A stretch of DNA of 64,000 bases. It comes from an uncultured Candidatus Saccharibacteria bacterium. GTDB taxonomy: Bacteria > Patescibacteriota > Minisyncoccia > UBA6257. The notes beneath the pieces were generated by a model. The model had not been told where the DNA came from, made no database searches, and worked only from the letters and a program-made list of their open reading frames with translations. Positions within the stretch are counted from its first letter, which is position 1, and the number at the start of each line of letters is the position of its first letter. The stretch covers positions 254,930-318,929 of the forward strand of contig CAZUBI010000001.1 in the NCBI GenBank assembly GCA_964618625.1. Reading direction: 5' to 3'. Positions 1,606-58,603 of this stretch are shown one piece after another. Both the position numbers and the translations under genes were made by a program.

Positions 1606-4557
1606 TTATCCTTTTATGACTGCCAAAGGTTTTAATTGGACTATTTTTTTAGCTAACCCGGCTTGATGAACTACTTCTACTACTTCATCAACATCTTTAT
1701 AGGCCAAAGGGGCTTCTTCAGCCAAATCAGAAAGAGATCCTGACTTAACTATTATACCTTTTTTAGCAAGTTGTTGTAAAACTTCTCTACTGCTTGTTTC
1801 TCTTTTTGCTTCATGACGGGACATTGTCCTTCCAGCACCATGACAAACAGTATAAAAAGCTTCTTTTGATTTTTCAGTACCCATTAAAATATAGGAGGCT
1901 GTTCCCATTGTGCCGGGAATTAACACTGGCTGATCGGGAAAAGCCCTTGTTGCCCCTTTACGATGAACGATTAATTTTATCATCTCTCCATCTACTTCAT
2001 GCTCCTCTATTTTTGCAATATTATGAGCCACATCATAAACCAAGTCCATTGATTCTTCTTTTAGTCCTAGAACTTTTTTCCAAGCATTTCTGATCAAATA
2101 AGTAATCATTTGGCGATTGGACCAGGCAAAGTTTGCTGCTGCTCCCATTGCCAAAAAATATTCTTTTCCCTCAGGAGTAGAAAAAGGAATTGCCGCTAAT
2201 TCTCTGTCGGGGAGAGAAATATTATATTTATTCATTGATTGCATAAAAAGACGGATATAATCTGTTGCCACTTGATGACCTAAACCGCGAGAACCAGTGT
2301 GAATAAGAACTACTACTTGTCCTTTTCTAAGACCCAATTCCTCAGCTAATTTTTCTTCATATACCTCGGTTACTTCCTGAACTTCCACGAAATGATTTCC
2401 GGATCCGAGAGTCCCTACTTGATCCCGTCCTCTTTTTTTGGCTAAATCAGATACAAAACAAGGATCTGCTTTTAAACATCCCCCTGACTCACAATGTTCG
2501 ATATCCTTTTCTGTAGCGTATTCTTTTTCTTTTAAATACTCGATCCCTTTTCCTAAAATTCTGTCCATTTCAGCAATATTAAATTTAAACTTTCCCCCTT
2601 TCCCAAGACCAGAAGGAACAGCATGAAAGATTTCTTCTATTAATTTTTCCAGATAGGGCCTGATTTCTTTTTCAGTATGTTTTGATTTTAATAATCTAAC
2701 TCCACAGTTAGAAACTACAAAATTGTCAGCAATAAAGTTATGGTCAGGGTGATTTACAGTAAAATCATAAACAAAATTTTGATAAGGAATTTTTTCAATC
2801 TTTTCAATTATACCCCAAACTAATCCTTTATCGCCATAAGCATATTTTTCTTTATATTCGTTAAATGATAGAAAATTAAAAGCTACTCGGGGAATTCCTC
2901 GTTTTCTTATAATTCCGTGACTATTTTCTTTAAAGAGAGAATGATAGAGAAATTGAAAACTAATATATTCTGAGACATATTTCTTAATTATTTGAGGAGC
3001 CAATTTTTTAAAATCCCCTCTCTTTCGGTACAACTTTCTTATCTCTCGTCTTGCCCTATCTCTCATTTCTACTATTTTTAATTTTTTCTTTAAATAATTA
3101 GCAGCCAAACAGGCTTTTTTATGTTTGCTTTGATTATATTCATAATTTATAACGCTAAAAAATTTAATGAGGTTTTTACTCTCACCCTTTATTTGTAACC
3201 TTAATCCTACGGTCTTTCCATATTTTCCTTTATATTGATACCCTGGTACTTCTTTAATAGAATAAGTCTGAACGCCAAATTCCTTTAATAGTTTCCCTAT
3301 ATCTTTTAAAAATAATTTGGCATTATTTTTAAATTTTTCAGCTTTTTGCATATTTAACTGAAGAGCGCAAAAGTTATATTTATTAAGAGTTGATGGTGAA
3401 GAAAGCTCCGCTCCAAAAAACGAAGCTAAGAATAATCTTTTTTGCCAAAGAGGACAATTGAATATCCAATTAGGAATTCTATATTTTTGATGGGTTTTCA
3501 AACTATAAGGTGTTCCTAAGGCCACTAATAAAATAGCAAAGGCAGAAGAGCCTATTTTAATACTGTACTCTGTTCTTGAAAATTTATAATTTCTATAAAA
3601 AGTAGTTATGGAGTGGTTTCTTTGCCTTGAATATATTTTTGGTGGCTTAAATCCAATTTTAAAAATATCTTTTTGAATTTCTTTCAAATCTTCCGGGTTA
3701 CCATAGAATTGAACCACTCCTTTTTTATTATTTACAAAACTGATTACCCCATCGCCAAAAATATAACCCATTAGTTTTAAGATAGAAGGAAGAGAAGAAG
3801 AATTATAAGTTAAAGGTAATAAATGACGAGATCTTATTTGATTTAGAATTTGAGATGAAGCATTTCCTTTGTTAGTTTTATTAAATTTCTTTAAATATTC
3901 TTTAAATCGCTTCTCGGCTAAAATAATTTTAGAAGAAGGATGCTGATAGTGAATTCCTTTAAATGGATAAGTTAAAACAAAATCATCTTTATTTAAAAAT
4001 CTTGTTTCTTTCATTCCGTTTTCTGTTTGTATGGGATGTTCTCCAGTAGCTTTAATTTTCTCTCCAGAATCTGTAATTATCCGATAAATAGTAGGGTTAT
4101 TATATCTTTGAAAAAAATGTATTAATGGAGAATCAATAACTGCTTTTTTTCTCAAATCTATAGTCTTTACTTCTTCACTTCCCCAAGACGACTCCATTTC
4201 TTTAATAGAGAGGTAGGCTCCATTTTTAAGTAAAATTTTACTCTCTGGAGAGAGGCAATTGATATCATATCCCACTGAACCAGGAGAAATTATGCCATCA
4301 GGTAGTTTTGTGGCAAAAACTCCGCCAATTGGTGCGCCATAGCCTTCATGAATATCTGGCATAGCTAAAGAATATTTTACAATTCCAGGAAGAGTAGTTA
4401 GATTAACTAATTGACTCAAACTTTTGTCTTTCATTACCTCATCTAACATTTTTTCAGTAATATAAATCCTCGCTGGAACCAGCATATCCCTCCTAAAAGA
4501 TTTTGGGATTTCCCAAAGATAATTATTTAATTTTATTAAATCAGATTTATTAAACAT
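1606..4557 (-). CDS. rtcB: RNA-splicing ligase RtcB, interrupted by an intein
   Basis: N-extein MFNKSD...GYDIN and C-extein CGVRLLKS...GSGNHFVE...HGAGR together give ~466 aa of RtcB; a 517-aa insert sits between them. Confidence 0.9.
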   Translation of the reverse strand: MFNKSDLIKLNNYLWEIPKSFRRDMLVPARIYITEKMLDEVMKDKSLSQLVNLTTLPGIVKYSLAMPDIHEGYGAPIGGVFATKLPDGIISPGSVGYDINCLSPESKILLKNGAYLSIKEMESSWGSEEVKTIDLRKKAVIDSPLIHFFQRYNNPTIYRIITDSGEKIKATGEHPIQTENGMKETRFLNKDDFVLTYPFKGIHYQHPSSKIILAEKRFKEYLKKFNKTNKGNASSQILNQIRSRHLLPLTYNSSSLPSILKLMGYIFGDGVISFVNNKKGVVQFYGNPEDLKEIQKDIFKIGFKPPKIYSRQRNHSITTFYRNYKFSRTEYSIKIGSSAFAILLVALGTPYSLKTHQKYRIPNWIFNCPLWQKRLFLASFFGAELSSPSTLNKYNFCALQLNMQKAEKFKNNAKLFLKDIGKLLKEFGVQTYSIKEVPGYQYKGKYGKTVGLRLQIKGESKNLIKFFSVINYEYNQSKHKKACLAANYLKKKLKIVEMRDRARREIRKLYRKRGDFKKLAPQIIKKYVSEYISFQFLYHSLFKENSHGIIRKRGIPRVAFNFLSFNEYKEKYAYGDKGLVWGIIEKIEKIPYQNFVYDFTVNHPDHNFIADNFVVSNCGVRLLKSKHTEKEIRPYLEKLIEEIFHAVPSGLGKGGKFKFNIAEMDRILGKGIEYLKEKEYATEKDIEHCESGGCLKADPCFVSDLAKKRGRDQVGTLGSGNHFVEVQEVTEVYEEKLAEELGLRKGQVVVLIHTGSRGLGHQVATDYIRLFMQSMNKYNISLPDRELAAIPFSTPEGKEYFLAMGAAANFAWSNRQMITYLIRNAWKKVLGLKEESMDLVYDVAHNIAKIEEHEVDGEMIKLIVHRKGATRAFPDQPVLIPGTMGTASYILMGTEKSKEAFYTVCHGAGRTMSRHEAKRETSSREVLQQLAKKGIIVKSGSLSDLAEEAPLAYKDVDEVVEVVHQAGLAKKIVQLKPLAVIKG
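2707..4257 (-). mobile_element. intein with LAGLIDADG homing-endonuclease domain inside rtcB
   Basis: Starts with Cys (CLSPESKILLKNG, block A) and has a TGEHP block B. Two LAGLIDADG-like motifs (LMGYIFGDGVISF, LASFFGAELS). C-terminal blocks VYDFTVNHPDHNFIADNFVVSN are followed by Cys+1 (TGT at 2704..2706, read directly from sequence). Confidence 0.8.
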
Positions 4558-4562
4558 AAAAT

Positions 4563-4976
4563 TTAGATGTCAAAAAGAATTATTGCCTTCCAATCACCAT
4601 TTTTGTCTTGATTGATATTTAATTGATGATAAGTTGCGGCTTTTATTTCTTTAGAAAATTCTTTCACATTTCTGCCTTCTATTATTCCTTTTATAGAATT
4701 ATCTGTTAATTTTTCTATTTTTACCTTGTCAAAAATGCAATTATAAATATCTGATTTTGCTAAAACTTCATTTAAAAAATCCACCAAGAGCGCGTTGATA
4801 TCCAAAGAATGAATTTCTATTTGTTCTTTCTTCAAAACACTCTTTTGAAAAACATTTGGCTCAATAATATAAGTCATTCCTTCCAAAGCCCCTCTAAAAA
4901 TATCTTCTTTGCAAGAGGCTGTTATTTCTAATCTAATATCTGCTGGATGAGATAAAACCTTGTATTTATAACTCAT
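4563..4976 (-). CDS. archease (RtcB activator)
   Basis: 137 aa; HPADIRLEITASCKEDIFRGALEGM N-terminal motif; lies immediately downstream of rtcB. Confidence 0.7.
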   Translation of the reverse strand: MSYKYKVLSHPADIRLEITASCKEDIFRGALEGMTYIIEPNVFQKSVLKKEQIEIHSLDINALLVDFLNEVLAKSDIYNCIFDKVKIEKLTDNSIKGIIEGRNVKEFSKEIKAATYHQLNINQDKNGDWKAIILFDI

Positions 4977-5018
4977 TATAATAATATTTTACTAGAAAGT
5001 ATTGAACAAAACAATCTA

Positions 5019-5051
5019 TCAAAAAACGGCTAAGATATTATCTTGACCGTC
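5019..5051 (-). terminator. hairpin + U-run terminator downstream of rpsT
   Basis: acggctaagat/atcttgaccgt stem followed by a T-run on the minus strand. Confidence 0.45.
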
Positions 5052-5075
5052 TATTTATAATTCATTAAATAAGAA

Positions 5076-5336
5076 TTATTTCTTTACCACCTTTTTTGCT
5101 AATCTAGATTTATCTCTCGCTGCTTTATTTTTCTTTATCAAATTCACTTTTGCGGCTTTATCTAAAAGTTTATATGCTTTTGGGAGCATTTTTTTAGCTT
5201 CTTCGATTTTGCCATTCTCAATAAGTTTTAAAAAATCTTTCTTTGTTTTTTTTAAAACAATCTTTTTCTGTAAATTAGCTTTTCTTTTTTTAGAGCTCTC
5301 TTTAAGAGCTCTTTTTGCTGAACTTGTAATAGGCAT
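5076..5336 (-). CDS. rpsT: 30S ribosomal protein S20
   Basis: 86 aa basic protein; SAKRALKESSKKRKANLQKK typical S20. Confidence 0.9.
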   Translation of the reverse strand: MPITSSAKRALKESSKKRKANLQKKIVLKKTKKDFLKLIENGKIEEAKKMLPKAYKLLDKAAKVNLIKKNKAARDKSRLAKKVVKK

Positions 5337-5365
5337 AAAAGAATAAATCTTTATTGTGATTTAAT

Positions 5366-6313
5366 TTAACATCTTTGCTTGGAAAAATCAACCAAAAACA
5401 TCTCTAAAGCAACTTGCCCATCAATATTTCCTCTCTTTATTTTTCTGTCATAATAAAGAAGGCGTTGAAATATGGACTTAAGCGTTTCCAAGGGAATAAT
5501 TTTTGCCAAAGGATGTAATTTTTGAAAAACATAAGGGTGCATTGAAGGCGGTTTTGCTTGTAGACTTTTTATTATCAAAAGATTGCGAAATTGAAAAATA
5601 ATCATTTTTAAAATATATAAAGGATGTATTCCCTGATTCATTAATGTCTCTAAAAACCAAAAGGCTTTTTTCATATTACCTTCAACCAAATTATCCAAAA
5701 AAGAAAAAATATTACTGTTTAAAGGTAAAAATAAATTTTCTTCTATTAACTCTTTGCTGATCAAGCCCTTTTTTATCAAAGCTAATTTTTCTAAAGAGTA
5801 GTAAATTGAACCTGTGTCAGAAGGAAAACTTACTAATATTAACTGGCGACCTTCAGAAGTTAATTTTAAACCCATTTTTTGCTCTTCTTCTATTATCCAA
5901 CTCTCTAATCCTTTTTTCTTTAATAATGAAAATTCTTTTACTCCTTTAGCTTTTTGTTCCAACCATTTCCGTAAGGAACTACTACGAACAGTATTATCCT
6001 CATAAAATATAACCATTATATCTTTAGCTTCGTCTATTTTTCTGTTCTTTAAAACAGCTAACAATTCTTTTCGAAATTCAATATTGGTATTTTTAAACAA
6101 ATTCTTTATTGCCACTAATTTACTGCCAGAAAATAAAGTATTGCTTTTTAATATGTCCTCTAATGCGGAAATATCAAATGAAGCAGAAAGTTTGTCTGAA
6201 AAATCACACGAAAAAAACGGGGTGTTTTTATTTTTATCATAATAAAAATCCCTTACTTCAAAAAAATATTTATGCGAACGAAAATTATCTTCCCCAAAAA
6301 TAAAATACAACAT
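5366..6313 (-). CDS. holA: DNA polymerase III delta subunit
   Basis: 315 aa; N-terminal LYFIFGEDNF and C-terminal YDRKIKRG...ALEMFL pattern; located next to rpsT. Confidence 0.6.
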   Translation of the reverse strand: MLYFIFGEDNFRSHKYFFEVRDFYYDKNKNTPFFSCDFSDKLSASFDISALEDILKSNTLFSGSKLVAIKNLFKNTNIEFRKELLAVLKNRKIDEAKDIMVIFYEDNTVRSSSLRKWLEQKAKGVKEFSLLKKKGLESWIIEEEQKMGLKLTSEGRQLILVSFPSDTGSIYYSLEKLALIKKGLISKELIEENLFLPLNSNIFSFLDNLVEGNMKKAFWFLETLMNQGIHPLYILKMIIFQFRNLLIIKSLQAKPPSMHPYVFQKLHPLAKIIPLETLKSIFQRLLYYDRKIKRGNIDGQVALEMFLVDFSKQRC

Positions 6314-6315
6314 AA

Positions 6316-7632
6316 TTATTGAGATGGTATGTAGTCAGGGTCTATTGGCAAGGAAAAGGTAAAAATAGATCCTCTGCCTATTGCAGATTTGGCCCAAATT
6401 TTTCCTCCATGCCTATCAATCATATTCTTGGCTAAATACAAACCTAATCCGATTCCACCTGTTTGTCCTTTTAATGCCGCTTTGGATCTGAAAAACTTAG
6501 TGAATAATCTTGATAAATCTTCTCTGGAAATCCCAGTGCCTGTATCCTCAACTGAAATAAGTATAAACGGCTTTCCTTCAAAAGGATCTATTCTTATTCT
6601 AACATCCCCATTTTTTACATTATACTTAATCGCATTATCAACCAAGATTTCCAAAACCAATTTAATTCGCAATGGATCCATTACAAATGGCTTGAGTGAA
6701 AATTCTGGCCTGTGAAAAACTAACTTAACATCATCCATCTTTGCCACTGGTTCAAATTTGATTAAAACATTCTCTATAATTTTTTCTATGTCTGCCATAG
6801 AAAATTGAAAACCAAACCGTCCTTCTTCAATCTGCGCAACATTCAAAAGATCTTCCACGGTTTTTAAACTTTCTTTCATAGCCTTTCTTCCATCATCTAT
6901 AAGTTTTTCCTGCTCTAATGTTAAAGAACCCATTTCCTTTTTGGCAAGAATTTCTAATATCCATGATAAGCCAGAGAGAGGAGTTCGCAGTTGGTGAGCC
7001 ACTATCGTGATAAAATCGGATTGGGTTTTTTTTAATACTTCTTCTTTGGTTAAATCATGAATAATTCTCAAAAAACCATAGGTTTCCCCTTTTTCATCCA
7101 TAACTTTTGTCGTTATTATTTCCAAAATAAGTTCTTTTGGCTGATAAAATTTTACTTTTATTTTTCCTGGATAAGTATCTGTAGATTTTTCCAAAACAAC
7201 TGGAGCCAAGCTTGGAAAAATTAATTTAGACAAAAGCCCATAACGGGCGTCATTACTTAATTCAGGTGTAATATTTTTTCCCAGAAGCTCCTTTTTTGAT
7301 ATACCAAGAAATTCCTCCATAGCTTTATTAACTAAAATAATCTCAAAATTCTCAGTATAAGAAATAGCAGGATCATTAATACTGCCTATCATTGCGTTTA
7401 TCTGATTTCTTTCTAAATCCAAACGGCTAGCTGTATCAACCGCACCTAAAAGAATAACTGTTATTATTAAATAAAAAATTACTAGGGCAATATTAATAAG
7501 CCAATTTAAAGGCCAAATAATCCAAAGCACATTGAAAACAATCTGCGCTATAATCAAACCGCCCAAAAACCAGAAGGGCAATAATTGCGGCGAAGAAGAA
7601 TGTTTTTTTAGGTTTTGAAAAAAGTTAAACAT
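6316..7632 (-). CDS. sensor histidine kinase (2 TM, PAS-like, HisKA + HATPase_c)
   Basis: H-box HQLRTPLSGLSWILEIL; N/G boxes DTGTGISREDLSRLF...GGIGLGLYLAKNMI. Confidence 0.85.
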   Translation of the reverse strand: MFNFFQNLKKHSSSPQLLPFWFLGGLIIAQIVFNVLWIIWPLNWLINIALVIFYLIITVILLGAVDTASRLDLERNQINAMIGSINDPAISYTENFEIILVNKAMEEFLGISKKELLGKNITPELSNDARYGLLSKLIFPSLAPVVLEKSTDTYPGKIKVKFYQPKELILEIITTKVMDEKGETYGFLRIIHDLTKEEVLKKTQSDFITIVAHQLRTPLSGLSWILEILAKKEMGSLTLEQEKLIDDGRKAMKESLKTVEDLLNVAQIEEGRFGFQFSMADIEKIIENVLIKFEPVAKMDDVKLVFHRPEFSLKPFVMDPLRIKLVLEILVDNAIKYNVKNGDVRIRIDPFEGKPFILISVEDTGTGISREDLSRLFTKFFRSKAALKGQTGGIGLGLYLAKNMIDRHGGKIWAKSAIGRGSIFTFSLPIDPDYIPSQ

Positions 7633-50962: not shown

Positions 50963-50993
50963 TTCACCAAAAAATCGCCTCTTTGACGATTCT
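50963..50993. repeat. repeated hairpin, copy 6 (degenerate)
   Basis: tcaccaaaaaatcgcctctttgacgattct. Confidence 0.7.
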
Positions 50994-50999
50994 AATTTG

Positions 51000-51071
51000 C
51001 TGCGGGACTTGGACTCGAACCAAGATCTTCTCCTCCAAGGGGAGACGTGACTACCATTGCACCATCCCGCA
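51000..51071 (-). tRNA. tRNA, probably Gln(TTG); unusual C at position 33
   Basis: hand-folded cloverleaf: acceptor TGCGGGA/TCCCGCA, T-arm CTTGG-TTCGAGT-CCAAG, anticodon arm TCTCC-CCTTGGA-GGAGA. Confidence 0.5.
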
Positions 51072-51800
51072 ATTTTTATAAATACCTTCAATCCATCCTT
51101 GAATCTTTCGATTCAAATTTATGCTTTTCTTCACAGAAATCCTAATTAATCCAAAATAATCTTTGCCAACATTTTTCCGATGAGTATTAATTTTGTTCTT
51201 TTTCCAAATTATTTTTTGAAAATCTTTTATAGGAAAACCTGTAGCTCTAGACCAATATTGTTGTACTTTTTTCAATTTATGCCGAGCCGTTACATGAAGA
51301 TAAATACGAACATTAATTTCTGATTTCGGTATTTTACAAATTTCATAAAGCCATTCTAAAAATATCTTTATTAAATATGGATCTGAATTTCCTAATTGAA
51401 CTAAACTTCCATTCAATTTTTCTTTACTGCCTTCCCCCCAATACAAAGCTGTACCAATCATCCATAAATCTCTTTCGCTAATATTCTTTATTTCATTTAT
51501 CGCTTCTTTTTTTATTTTCTTTGTAATAATCCTTTTTTGGTTTTTTCTTGCAAGGGCTCCGCGAAGCGCAGCTGATAATTTCTTTTTTGTTAATCTCTGT
51601 TTTTGTCTTTTACTTAACCCAACGCTTCTCAACCATAAAGACAATGTTGATTTGGCAACAGGAACTTTTTCTAATATTTCGGAATAAGAAAAGCCTCTCT
51701 TACGAAGCTTAATAGCTAATTCCTTTTCTTTATATTTTAATATCATCTGAACCACTATTAGTATTACTCTAATTATACTATCATGGTTCGATATTGTCAA
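51051..51800 (-). CDS. HTH + LAGLIDADG-like motif protein (putative free-standing homing-endonuclease-like), paralog of 57974..58603
   Basis: N-terminal HTH (ELAIKLRKRGFSYSEILEKV); ALYWGEGSK resembles LAGLIDADG (..GfiDGEGs); 3' end overlaps the tRNA 5' end by ~20 nt. Confidence 0.45.
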   Translation of the reverse strand: MTISNHDSIIRVILIVVQMILKYKEKELAIKLRKRGFSYSEILEKVPVAKSTLSLWLRSVGLSKRQKQRLTKKKLSAALRGALARKNQKRIITKKIKKEAINEIKNISERDLWMIGTALYWGEGSKEKLNGSLVQLGNSDPYLIKIFLEWLYEICKIPKSEINVRIYLHVTARHKLKKVQQYWSRATGFPIKDFQKIIWKKNKINTHRKNVGKDYFGLIRISVKKSINLNRKIQGWIEGIYKNCGMVQW

Positions 51801-53467: not shown

Positions 53468-54220
53468 CTAAAAATTTAAAATTTTATCTAAATTTCCATC
53501 TAGCACCTCATTAACATTACCTATTTTTTTACCAGTGAGATGATTCTTTACTAATTTATAAGGATGAAGGACATAAGAACGAATCTGATTACCCCATTCA
53601 ATTTTTATTTTTTCGCCCTTTAATTCTTTCAAAGTTTTTACTTTCTGTTTCTCAGCTAATTGATGAAGTTTAGCCCTTAAAACAGTCAAAGCTTTTTCTT
53701 TGTTCTTAAACTGCGATCTTCCTTCCTGGCAACCAACAACTATCCCAGTAGGCTTATGGCGTACCCTTACAGCTGTTTCCACCTTTTGAACATTTTGCCC
53801 GCCTGGACCTGAAGAACGAAAAGTCTCAATTTCTAAATCGCTTTCTTCTAATGGAAGTTCTTTCGCCTCAATAATCGGCAAAACCTCCACTAAAGCAAAA
53901 GAGGTGTGGCGAAGTTTAGCAGAAGAAAAAGGAGAAATTCTTACCAAACGATGTACACCATTCTCATTTTTTAAAATTCTATAAACATCATCTCCGCCTA
54001 TCTCTGCAATAGCGTTTTTAATGCCGCCATATTCATTTTCTCTCTTGTCTAATAATGAAAATCTCCAATTTTTCCTTTCTGAATATTTCTGATACATCTT
54101 TAAAAGCATCAAAGTCCAATCTTCGGCATCTTGACCGCCAGCACCGGCATACACAGAAAGTGTTATATTATTTCCTCTAGGCATCCTGAGAATTTTACCA
54201 AATTTAGGCCTGAAAAACAA
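53468..54220 (-). CDS. prfB: peptide chain release factor 2 homologue lacking N-terminal domain 1
   Basis: SPF tripeptide (RISPFSS), GGQ (SSGPGGQNVQKVETAVR); TTG start; in-frame stop 10 codons upstream; only 24 nt from pcm. Confidence 0.7.
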   Translation of the reverse strand: MFFRPKFGKILRMPRGNNITLSVYAGAGGQDAEDWTLMLLKMYQKYSERKNWRFSLLDKRENEYGGIKNAIAEIGGDDVYRILKNENGVHRLVRISPFSSAKLRHTSFALVEVLPIIEAKELPLEESDLEIETFRSSGPGGQNVQKVETAVRVRHKPTGIVVGCQEGRSQFKNKEKALTVLRAKLHQLAEKQKVKTLKELKGEKIKIEWGNQIRSYVLHPYKLVKNHLTGKKIGNVNEVLDGNLDKILNF

Positions 54221-54243: not shown

Positions 54244-54882
54244 TTATTCTTTATCAGTAATTAAAGGAACAAAGGTAAATCCTTGAAAACGCTTAATATC
54301 AAATTCATTTTCCGCTTTTTTTATCCAAAGTTGTACTTCTCCATTAAGAGGAGTAACTATTCTTCCGCCTGTTTTTAATTGTTTCAGCCAATCTTTAGGA
54401 ACTTCACTTACTGCAGCTGAACAAAGAATCTTATCAAACAGAACTTCCTTTTCATAACCTTTAGAGCCGTCAGCGCAAATAAATTCTACGATGCCTTTTT
54501 TTATAAAATTGTATTTTGCTACGTTTCTTTCTCCAAATTCTTTTAATTCAGGAATTCTTTCTATAGCAATTACTTTTCCTTCGGGTTTTTGACTTACAAT
54601 ATAACCCAAAAGAGCACTTGTCCATCCAGAACCAGCGCCAATATCCAAAATCTTTTCTCCTGCTTGCGGCTGAAGAAGCTCTAATATAAATGCCACTGTA
54701 AGGGGCTGGGAAATAGTCTGTCCAAAACCAATCGGTAATGGAATATTTGAATAAGTATCATCTTTATACTTAGAAACTACAAAATTCTTTCTATCAATAG
54801 CAAAAAATGCCTCTATAATATGAGGGGATTTTAAATAACCTGAATCAATAATTTCCTGAACAAGATCTTCTTTTGATAACAT
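54244..54882 (-). CDS. pcm: protein-L-isoaspartate O-methyltransferase
   Basis: GQTISQPLTVAFILELL; SAM motif ILDIGAGSGW. Confidence 0.85.
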   Translation of the reverse strand: MLSKEDLVQEIIDSGYLKSPHIIEAFFAIDRKNFVVSKYKDDTYSNIPLPIGFGQTISQPLTVAFILELLQPQAGEKILDIGAGSGWTSALLGYIVSQKPEGKVIAIERIPELKEFGERNVAKYNFIKKGIVEFICADGSKGYEKEVLFDKILCSAAVSEVPKDWLKQLKTGGRIVTPLNGEVQLWIKKAENEFDIKRFQGFTFVPLITDKE

Positions 54883-57203: not shown

Positions 57204-57401
57204 CTTTCTCTATTAATTAGGTCTCTATTAATCTGAAGCAATGTTTCCCTGATAAATTTTGTTTTTATATATAGAAAATAAAAATGTATTTTCAAGGTTC
57301 AAGCTAAACTAAGAATACTCTATTTTAGAGTATTCATATTATATAATATCTATATGGAAAAGTCAATGGTTGAGACAAGTCCACTGAAACTTTAGTGAAA
57401 G

Positions 57402-57474
57402 CAGGGGCGGCAGGGCTTGAACCTGCGACCTGCGGTTTTGGAGACCGCCGCTCTCCCAACTGAGCTACGCCCCT
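57402..57474 (-). tRNA. tRNA-Trp (CCA)
   Basis: hand-folded: AGGGGCG acceptor, GCTC/GAGC D-stem, anticodon loop CTCCAAA, T-arm GCAGG-TTCAAGC-CCTGC. Confidence 0.85.
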
Positions 57475-57631
57475 ATTTCTTCATTTCCTTATGACTAGTG
57501 TGTTTTCTGCACCAAGAACAATATTTTTTTAATTCTAATTTACGCTCAACAGTTTTTTTGTTTCTGCGCGTATAATAATTGATATGTTTGCACTCTGTAC
57601 ACTGTAATCTTACTATAAATTCTTTTTTCAT
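57473..57631 (-). CDS. rpmG: 50S ribosomal protein L33 (absent from the ORF track, under 60 aa)
   Basis: translation MKKEFIVRLQCTECKHINYYTRRNKKTVERKLELKKYCSWCRKHTSHKEMKK* verified codon by codon; stop TAG overlaps the tRNA-Trp 5' end by 2 nt. Confidence 0.9.
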   Translation of the reverse strand: MKKEFIVRLQCTECKHINYYTRRNKKTVERKLELKKYCSWCRKHTSHKEMKK

Positions 57632-57683
57632 AGCTAGTATTTATCTGTTGTTAATTGATATTTGTTAGTTGTTAGTTGATCTG

Positions 57684-57755
57684 AGCCGATGGAGGGAATT
57701 GAACCCACGACCCCTTTCTTACCAAGAAAGTGCTCTACCACTGAGCTACATCGGC
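57684..57755 (-). tRNA. tRNA-Thr (GGT)
   Basis: GCCGATG acceptor, anticodon arm CTTTC-TTGGTAA-GAAAG. Confidence 0.8.
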
Positions 57756-57763
57756 TGGACTTG

Positions 57764-57846
57764 TGGGTGCGGTAGGACTCGAACCTACGTAGACCTAAGG
57801 TCGCGAGATTTACAGTCTCGTGCAATTGCCGCTATGCGACGCACCC
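57764..57846 (-). tRNA. tRNA-Tyr (GTA), long variable arm
   Basis: GGGTGCG acceptor, anticodon arm CGAGA-CTGTAAA-TCTCG, variable hairpin GACC-TTA-GGTC. Confidence 0.8.
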
Positions 57847-57910
57847 GTAAATTCTATCTCAGTCATTCATTTTGCCACCTAGGCAAATATTTATCAAGTT
57901 TTCAATACAG

Positions 57911-57983
57911 AGCCACCCATCGGACTCGAACCGACAACCTACGCATTACAAATGCGTTGCTCTACCAATTGAGCTAGAGTGGC
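57911..57983 (-). tRNA. tRNA-Thr (TGT)
   Basis: GCCACTC acceptor, anticodon arm ACGCA-TTTGTAA-TGCGT, T-loop TTCGAGT. Confidence 0.85.
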
Positions 57984-58603
57984 AAAGACTGATTATTGGA
58001 ATATTTTTCTATCCAATCTAAGATCTGATCAAATAATCTTTTATCAGCATATCTTATAGAAACTGTTCCGTATTTTGATTTTTTCTTATAGCTTCCTGCT
58101 TTGCCTTGATGAATATAAGAAGAATAAAATTGTTTTAAAGAAATATTGGTAATTTCTGACCATTGTTTTTTAATCTTAGTTTCATCTTGATCCTCGTATA
58201 AATGAAGCGATATTCTTAATCGATTTTCTTGAATACCACAAATATTTCGGAGAAATTTTAAAAAAACTTTAATCATCTCTGGATTACTATTAACGAAATC
58301 CACATAATTGCCACTTCTTTTTGTTCCCTCAGCCCAATAAAGCATAATTCCTGCTATCAATAGAAGCTCATCATCTTTACTTAATTTCTTTTTTATCTTA
58401 AATGGAAGTTTATAAAATTTATGAAAATAAATTAAGTTTGCTGCATTACTTCGATTTCTTCTTGGAATATCATTTTTTTCTAACCAATAACGAACTTTGT
58501 TATTAGAGATTTTAAGATCTTGCGCTATTTGAAACATTGATCTTTCTTTAATCTTGTACAAAAAGCAAATATCTTCAACTAATTTTTGATGTCTATCTAC
58601 CAT
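57974..58603 (-). CDS. HTH + LAGLIDADG-like motif protein, paralog of 51051..51800
   Basis: HTH (MFQIAQDLKISNNKVRYWLEKN); LIAGIMLYWAEGTK motif; stop overlaps the 5' end of tRNA-Thr(TGT) by ~10 nt. Confidence 0.45.
   Translation of the reverse strand: MVDRHQKLVEDICFLYKIKERSMFQIAQDLKISNNKVRYWLEKNDIPRRNRSNAANLIYFHKFYKLPFKIKKKLSKDDELLLIAGIMLYWAEGTKRSGNYVDFVNSNPEMIKVFLKFLRNICGIQENRLRISLHLYEDQDETKIKKQWSEITNISLKQFYSSYIHQGKAGSYKKKSKYGTVSIRYADKRLFDQILDWIEKYSNNQSLPL

Follow-up and report, generated by a model that had tools for sequence, protein, structure and literature searches.

Two probable homing-endonuclease-like genes, each tied to one tRNA gene, in a Candidatus Saccharibacteria genome

A 64,000-nucleotide (nt) stretch of genome from an uncultured Candidatus Saccharibacteria bacterium (hereafter “the window”) encodes two related minus-strand genes, A and B, whose 3' ends run into the tRNA-Gln(UUG) and tRNA-Thr(UGU) genes, respectively. 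We consider it probable (at roughly 0.62) that A and B are homing-endonuclease-like genes of the free-standing kind, each associated with one particular tRNA gene. Several lines of evidence favored this: i) structurally, the C-terminal domain of B matched LAGLIDADG proteins best, and its invariant Glu fell on the catalytic E117 of I-DmoI; ii) family members were linked to particular tRNA genes in relatives; iii) the site of A was empty in close relatives; iv) A appeared to diverge independently of its flanking genes; v) the adjoining tRNA allele was replaced along with gene A. An earlier inspection of the letters alone (the “sequence-only reading”) had proposed such tRNA-associated free-standing homing-endonuclease-like elements, alongside recombinase-like elements and regulators co-transcribed with tRNAs; it is the first of these that the evidence now favors.

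The kinship of the two proteins, previously suspected from a shared N-terminal helix-turn-helix (HTH) and a G.(A/M)LYW(G/A)EG(S/T)K motif, was borne out by BLASTP (32% identity over 144 amino acids (aa), E=1e-15); the common motif reads ALYWGEGSK in A and MLYWAEGTK in B, with LYW[AG]EG as its invariant form. Both open reading frames (ORFs) are co-oriented with their tRNA genes as noted before, and the overlaps, estimated then at ~20 and ~10 nt, measured 21 nt for A (51051..51071) and 10 nt for B (57974..57983). Neither gene has a stop codon of its own: the last seven codons of A, stop included, lie within tRNA-Gln, the stop being the TAG in the GGTAG of the D-loop; for B, U8-A9-G10 (positions 8-10) of tRNA-Thr supply the TAG. 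The extent originally given for B was correct, and that of A was not, its 5' end having been placed at 51800. The TTG at 51800 was rejected as a start, as it belongs to the -35 box TTGACA of the promoter; the true start is the ATG at 51746, and the resulting 231-aa product is identical to the database protein P0090. A profile search of the window's six-frame translation found no third family member.

A profile of the two subfamilies retrieved 936 representatives (50%-identity clusters) at E<=1e-30 and 4,798 at E<=1e-10. For the A-type, with 2,276 database clusters of which 31 were aligned (mean column identity 71%), the loci were metagenomic and counts were limited to those with enough downstream sequence (n=77). 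For the B-type, 89 clusters mapped to 315 species genomes, and the analysis took in the best 80 loci. In 77/77 informative A-type loci a tRNA-Gln(ttg) lay 3' of the gene on the same strand, and the stop codon fell 15-65 nt inside this tRNA in 57 of the 77 (at 15, 16 or 21 nt in 56 of the 57); the flank on the non-tRNA side varied, being ftsX or dnaX. At nearly all of the 80 B-type loci the immediate neighbour was a tRNA gene in the same orientation, from the Thr(tgt)-Tyr(gta)-[Gly]-Thr(ggt)-Trp cluster, and where the tRNA was 3' of the gene the stop usually lay 10, 21 or 38 nt inside it, or up to about 14 nt before it. A neighbour-joining tree of the B-type proteins resolved two clades by tRNA identity: clade 1 was always beside tRNA-Thr(tgt), with the gene usually upstream and just downstream in seven nested cases, and clade 2 was beside tRNA-Tyr(gta), one of its subclades having the gene between tRNA-Tyr and tRNA-Thr(ggt). 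Over about 160 loci in two phyla, tRNA adjacency was specific to tRNA identity and followed the protein phylogeny, so the association first noticed in the window holds among its relatives.

These overlaps have left traces in databases, where proteins of the family carry translated tRNA as C-terminal tails, a systematic annotation artefact. For example, in P0005, P0012, P0048, P0052 and P0066 the tail SSVGRA corresponds to the D-arm AGCTCAGTTGGTAGAGC and GTQVAKGDRL to the tRNA-Tyr 5' half; the C-terminal “NCGVV” conserved in most A-type proteins is the translated 5' end of tRNA-Gln. Many family members lie on ~1 kb contigs, as would be expected if assemblies broke at cassettes that are variable or repeated. 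At one locus (L002, around 3700..3800) a run of N, either masked sequence or a scaffold gap, is flanked by duplicated sequence just downstream of the gene and looks like an assembly problem.

Comparison of tRNA loci with and without the gene, which the sequence-only reading had suggested, yielded both occupied and empty ftsX-tRNA-Gln sites for A. In four relatives (L167, L168, L169 and L170) ftsE-ftsX was followed directly by tRNA-Gln, without gene A; their FtsX was 89%, 76%, 73% and 66% identical to that of the window (for L167, also FtsE 93% and PrfB 87%), and the distance from the ftsX stop to tRNA-Gln was 4, 5, 4 and 48 nt, respectively. The same site was occupied in the window, in L081/L082 (FtsX 93%), in L159 (84%) and in four distant genomes (FtsX about 30%). 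That three ftsX-tRNA spacers are near-identical, at 4-5 nt, is easier to reconcile with sites never invaded than with precise deletions that happened repeatedly. The 48-nt spacer of L170 (4410..4457) opens with a partial copy of the tRNA 5' end (ATTGCGGGATCG) followed by a GC-rich palindrome (CCTGCCTGCGCAGGCAGG), and may be the scar of an earlier insertion or excision. L168, itself without gene A, has a 512-aa serine recombinase and small HTH genes immediately downstream of tRNA-Gln (4426..6368), which suggests that a different mobile element integrated there.

Identity between A proteins was 88% for the nearest pair and then 49-59%, whether FtsX was 84% or 30% identical. The nearest A proteins beyond the species (70-73%) were located after dnaX, not ftsX, and the genomes with the closest A relatives (L161, L163 and L166) had no neighbouring gene in common with the window. 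Judged from these sequences, the divergence of A is uncoupled from that of its flanking genes. Moreover, the adjoining tRNA-Gln allele appears to have been exchanged together with gene A. Compared with L167, the window had 89% identity over the final 300 nt of ftsX and a clearly homologous terminator after the tRNA, but only 71% identity in tRNA-Gln; L159 combined a different A lineage (58%) with a third tRNA-Gln allele; and the L081 tRNA-Gln was a mosaic in which the 5' two-thirds of the window's allele were joined to a different T-arm. The allele was replaced or mosaic while flanks remained 86-90% identical, and homology between the window and its relatives resumed at the terminator, whose motif (AATCGCCAA..AGGCG[AG]TTTTTT) also occurs in L167, L081 and L159; a terminator scan did not call the hairpin in the window (50968..50990). 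No “immune” tRNA-Gln signature common to the gene-linked alleles was found, both D-arm types adjoining the gene, and these alleles were diverse. For B, a relative lacking the gene was sought by exact-match look-up of the window's EF-Ts, which returned same-strain contigs only. Therefore the case for a putative mobility of B is built on its clade structure, its presence in two phyla and its variable position in the cluster: in other genomes, relatives of B precede the Tyr gene or lie between it and the Thr(GGU) gene.

The window's tRNA-Gln allele is itself unusual. Its anticodon loop (51031..51037, minus) reads CCUUGGA, with C at position 33, where U is near-universal in tRNAs. C33 was present in 11 of 81 gene-linked tRNA-Gln alleles over several A lineages (the window, L081-L083, L086, L092, L103, L107, L159, L161 and L163) and in 0/4 gene-less alleles; it may be a change that confers resistance to cleavage, or else a peculiarity that the tRNA tolerates. 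The allele also had the lowest Rfam score (53.7 bits) of the five tRNAs of the window. A 12-nt inverted repeat (11/12 complementary; 51015..51026 and 51780..51791), which matches the tRNA-Gln T-arm to the promoter spacer, brackets the cassette and may well have arisen by chance, the T-loop GGTTCGA being common.

At the protein level, the AlphaFold model of B (predicted local distance difference test score (pLDDT) 92.4, from a 42-sequence alignment) comprised a three-helix HTH region, a linker and an alpha/beta domain starting with helix 76-92; the model of A reached pLDDT 82. The LYW[AG]EG motif closes the first helix of this domain, E92 of B being the final residue of the helix. The Glu and the following Gly were invariant in both subfamilies (E92/G93 in B, E105/G106 in A; 26-42 aligned sequences), and in B so were Y89, N105, W148 and G179. 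Furthermore, the HTH of B matched PHROG families annotated as HNH endonucleases (E about 4e-5). Searches with A and B against Pfam, NCBIfam, PADLOC and, by phmmer, PDB sequences gave weak HTH matches only, and the family profile hit only HTH proteins among PDB sequences. The sequence-only reading had proposed a check by HHpred/Pfam; no LAGLIDADG match was found in Pfam, LAGLIDADG proteins were the top structural matches of the B domain, and no confident non-nuclease fold emerged.

Several results weaken the case for a homing-endonuclease-like identity: i) there was no match to Pfam LAGLIDADG_1, _2 or _3, nor to WhiA, for A and B at E<=1 or for ten longer relatives at E<=0.01; ii) when hhalign was run with the family against the single I-DmoI sequence (identical to PDB chain 1b24_A), LYWAEGTK fell on the second I-DmoI motif LYVAEGDK, with the B Glu on E117, which we take to be a catalytic metal ligand, at a probability of just 5%; iii) in a Foldseek search of the B model against PDB, OmpA-like folds came first at low TM-scores (template modeling scores), and LAGLIDADG entries stood at ranks 32 and 38; iv) the modeled B domain has a helix and a strand added to the canonical alpha-beta-beta-alpha-beta-beta-alpha core; v) the model of A gave no LAGLIDADG structural match; vi) across all A loci, A identity and tRNA identity were nearly uncorrelated (rho 0.06), and conversion tracts would therefore be variable. 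Because of the missing curated match, the low hhalign probability, the Foldseek ranking and the added elements, we rate the LAGLIDADG assignment of the family as probable, not proven; the nuclease activity of A and B is putative.

The A cassette lies outside any intron and has a promoter of its own, at a position conserved in relatives. This promoter, established for A alone, is a 12/12 match to TTGACA-17-TATAAT, and 25 nt separate its -10 box from the ATG; among 73 related loci, the top sigma-70-like match scored 9-12 of 12 and in most stopped 23-25 nt short of the ATG. We propose that a cassette consists of the promoter, the ORF (N-terminal HTH and one LAGLIDADG-like domain) and the adjoining tRNA gene. 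The protein would act as a dimer, its invariant Glu in the LYW[AG]EG helix serving to cleave the matching tRNA locus wherever a genome has no copy of the gene; double-strand-break repair from a gene-carrying copy would then install the cassette, and conversion would often run through the adjacent tRNA and replace the resident allele. Dimerization, the cleavage site and homing itself are putative. In the empty sites, tRNA-Gln is presumably transcribed with or from within ftsEX, as it begins 4-5 nt after ftsX in three of them; after insertion the cassette promoter would drive both ORF and tRNA, keeping the tRNA transcribed once it is cut off from upstream transcription. With the stop codon placed within the tRNA, processing of the shared transcript by RNase P would yield a non-stop mRNA, and it is a speculation of ours that this limits protein dosage.

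In part of the Tyr clade, a group I intron is found next to the gene. At 25 Tyr-clade loci, almost all in Omnitrophota metagenome-assembled genomes, a group I intron (Rfam RF00028, 75-107 bits) started at the ORF end. In L070 (3567..3838), for example, the tRNA-Tyr(GUA) 5' half overlaps the ORF tail and the tRNA is split at 35/36 by a ~200-nt ORF-less intron; the patescibacterial loci L035, L067, L072 and L176 are split likewise, with intron-like sequence that diverges more. P0089, the most distant relative examined, precedes an apparent class-I tRNA 5' half ending CUGU and then intron-like sequence, its contig ending before the 3' exon. Omnitrophota genomes of this kind (L037-L079 and others) would appear to be without tRNA-Tyr. 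A 2026 survey of Patescibacteria tRNA introns likewise recorded 35/36 insertions, one of them in tRNA-Tyr, and judged intron mobility to be limited, as most introns held no internal endonuclease gene; its search, by Pfam, covered the interior of the introns (PMC13011429). An arrangement suited to collaborative homing is thus present in Tyr-clade relatives and absent for the window genes, and in the Tyr clade the gene may supply an endonuclease in trans.

The only serious rival is a domesticated WhiA-like DNA-binding protein, which would bind the promoter/tRNA region and regulate the downstream tRNA or tRNA operon without cutting DNA. We disfavor it and consider it unlikely. Both subfamilies retain the motif's acidic residue without exception, whereas WhiA is described as having lost it; furthermore, the family has one domain, not two, its HTH is N-terminal, and no WhiA match was found in Pfam. 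Gene A is dispensable, because four close relatives do without it at the ftsX-tRNA-Gln site, and this presence/absence polymorphism also weakens the more general idea of a regulator co-transcribed with the tRNA. The uncoupled divergence of A and the exchange of the tRNA with the gene point away from a regulator as well. A gene inherited vertically in its lineage, with tRNA adjacency due to genome compactness and the overlap a by-product of streamlining and automatic ORF extension, has some plausibility in the candidate phyla radiation (CPR), where genomes are very compact and gene overlaps common, and where an ORF that lost its own stop would read on to the first stop within the tRNA. Yet compactness alone sits badly with an adjacency that is specific to tRNA identity and tracks protein phylogeny in two phyla, with a variable other-side flank (ftsX or dnaX) and with empty sites of precise 4-5 nt spacing, and we give this explanation very little credence.

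Since gene and tRNA would share one transcript, and LAGLIDADG proteins can serve as maturases of group I introns, one might also imagine that the protein binds RNA and, as a maturase or processing factor, aids folding or splicing of the downstream pre-tRNA. However, no group I intron turned up in the window, the adjoining tRNAs were uninterrupted in all 77 tRNA-Gln cases and throughout the Thr(tgt) clade, and in the Tyr clade eight genes stand before a tRNA-Tyr that has no intron. As introns are lacking in the Gln and Thr(UGU) clades, the maturase is rejected as a general explanation, and we regard it as highly improbable. Related tRNA introns of Patescibacteria, moreover, self-splice in vitro (PMC13011429). 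An integrase or recombinase-type mobile element using tRNA sites is scarcely credible: no recombinase catalytic domain was found in any library, which effectively refutes it and removes the recombinase-like option of the sequence-only reading. The element, of ~750 bp, sits at the tRNA 5' end, whereas integrases use the 3' end. Neither A nor B is flanked by terminal direct repeats or tRNA duplications, and the recombinase and transposon readings were set aside.

If the proteins are active as homing-endonuclease-like enzymes, they would constitute a large new branch of LAGLIDADG-like endonucleases, each lineage specific to one conserved tRNA locus, and homing-type gene conversion would operate on chromosomal tRNA genes of ultra-small bacteria, making essential tRNA alleles swappable between lineages. 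The family was not described in the literature searched, which included the survey of Patescibacteria tRNA introns (PMC13011429). Activity of the proteins would also have a bearing on the limited mobility concluded there: a Pfam-invisible endonuclease-like gene lies just outside many intron-bearing tRNA-Tyr genes. We offer one wider proposal tentatively, and think it rather doubtful as a whole: that the family is a trans-acting mobility engine of stable-RNA genes in CPR and Omnitrophota, in which each lineage cuts a single tRNA gene, perhaps around the anticodon, the region that houses the ORF-less group I introns, and drives cross-species replacement of tRNA genes and introns, with dosage limited via the non-stop mRNA made by RNase P. 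In practical terms, ORF/tRNA overlaps and intron-split tRNAs lead to annotation errors, both translated-tRNA tails and “missing” tRNA-Tyr genes.

Table 1. Genes A and B, their tRNA genes and associated features in the window.
Feature	Position	Strand	Description
Gene A	51051..51746	minus	231-aa protein; N-terminal HTH and LAGLIDADG-like C-terminal domain; tRNA-Gln(UUG)-linked subfamily
Promoter of gene A cassette	51772..51800	minus	TTGACA, 17-nt spacer, TATAAT
tRNA-Gln(UUG)	50999..51071	minus	ARAGORN and Rfam; 5' end overlapped by gene A
Probable terminator after tRNA-Gln	50968..50990	minus	Hairpin and T-run ATCGTC-AAAGA-GGCGAT-TTTTTT, read by eye
Gene B	57974..58603	minus	209-aa paralog; HTH and LAGLIDADG-like domain; tRNA-Thr(UGU)-linked clade
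tRNA-Thr(UGU)	57910..57983	minus	ARAGORN and Rfam; first of conserved Thr-Tyr-Thr-(rpmG)-Trp cluster
tRNA-Tyr(GUA)	57763..57846	minus	Cluster downstream of B
tRNA-Thr(GGU)	57683..57755	minus	Cluster downstream of B
rpmG	57473..57631	minus	Cluster downstream of B
tRNA-Trp(CCA)	57401..57474	minus	Cluster downstream of B; whole remainder of cluster is 57401..57846

The neighbouring genes in the window are ftsE, ftsX and prfB, and rpsB, tsf and rpmG (the last in Table 1); together with their best database matches they indicate a CPR genome of the Paceibacteria type. The RF2-like release factor (53468..54220, minus) has SPF and GGQ motifs and is only about 250 aa long. It lies 23 nt from the preceding gene pcm (which ends at 54244), leaving no room for the usual N-terminal domain or a frameshifted upstream segment, and the factor is of similar length (236-253 aa) in relatives.

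Among known systems, the family resembles the LAGLIDADG homing endonucleases, both single-motif homodimeric enzymes (I-CreI) and domain 2 of I-DmoI, in a helix that ends in an invariant acid followed by Gly (LYWAEG here, LYVAEG in I-DmoI), in the best structural matches of B, in a domain of about 130 aa and in a gene that behaves as a mobile element. It differs from them in falling outside Pfam LAGLIDADG_1/_2/_3, in the helix and strand inserted in the core, in the fused N-terminal HTH and in being free-standing in a bacterial chromosome, not in an intron or intein, with its activity putative here. Introns of Patescibacteria are known to carry endonucleases, of the LAGLIDADG type in rRNA genes and of the HNH type in tRNA-Asn genes (PMC13011429, PMC11270868); these too are homing elements in stable-RNA genes of the same phylum, but they are intron-internal and Pfam-detectable, whereas members of the present family are located outside the tRNA and escape Pfam, and those surveys did not report them. 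WhiA, with two degenerate domains that lack the catalytic acid, a C-terminal HTH and vertical conservation, contrasts with a single domain, an invariant Glu, an N-terminal HTH and patchy presence in the family.

In collaborative (trans) homing, as with F-CphI and the psbA intron or mobE and I-TevIII, the arrangement of endonuclease gene and intron was proposed as a precursor of mobile introns (PMC3984707). The Tyr clade is alike in combining a free-standing gene with an ORF-less intron, and unlike in that the host gene is a tRNA in a bacterial chromosome, cleavage at the intron site being putative; since the tRNAs of A and B have no intron, this model is inapplicable to them. The T4 gene segB, a free-standing endonuclease gene with its own promoter among tRNA genes, shows preferential inheritance and co-conversion of the tRNA region (PMC2988022); it is the closest precedent for the family, as collaborative homing is for the Tyr clade. 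SegB and other Seg/Mob proteins share with the family a free-standing gene with its own promoter beside a tRNA and an apparently co-converted tRNA region. SegB, however, is a GIY-YIG enzyme of a phage, whereas the family is LAGLIDADG-like and resides in a cellular chromosome, its lineages each tied to one tRNA identity and its ORF overlapping the tRNA 5' end.
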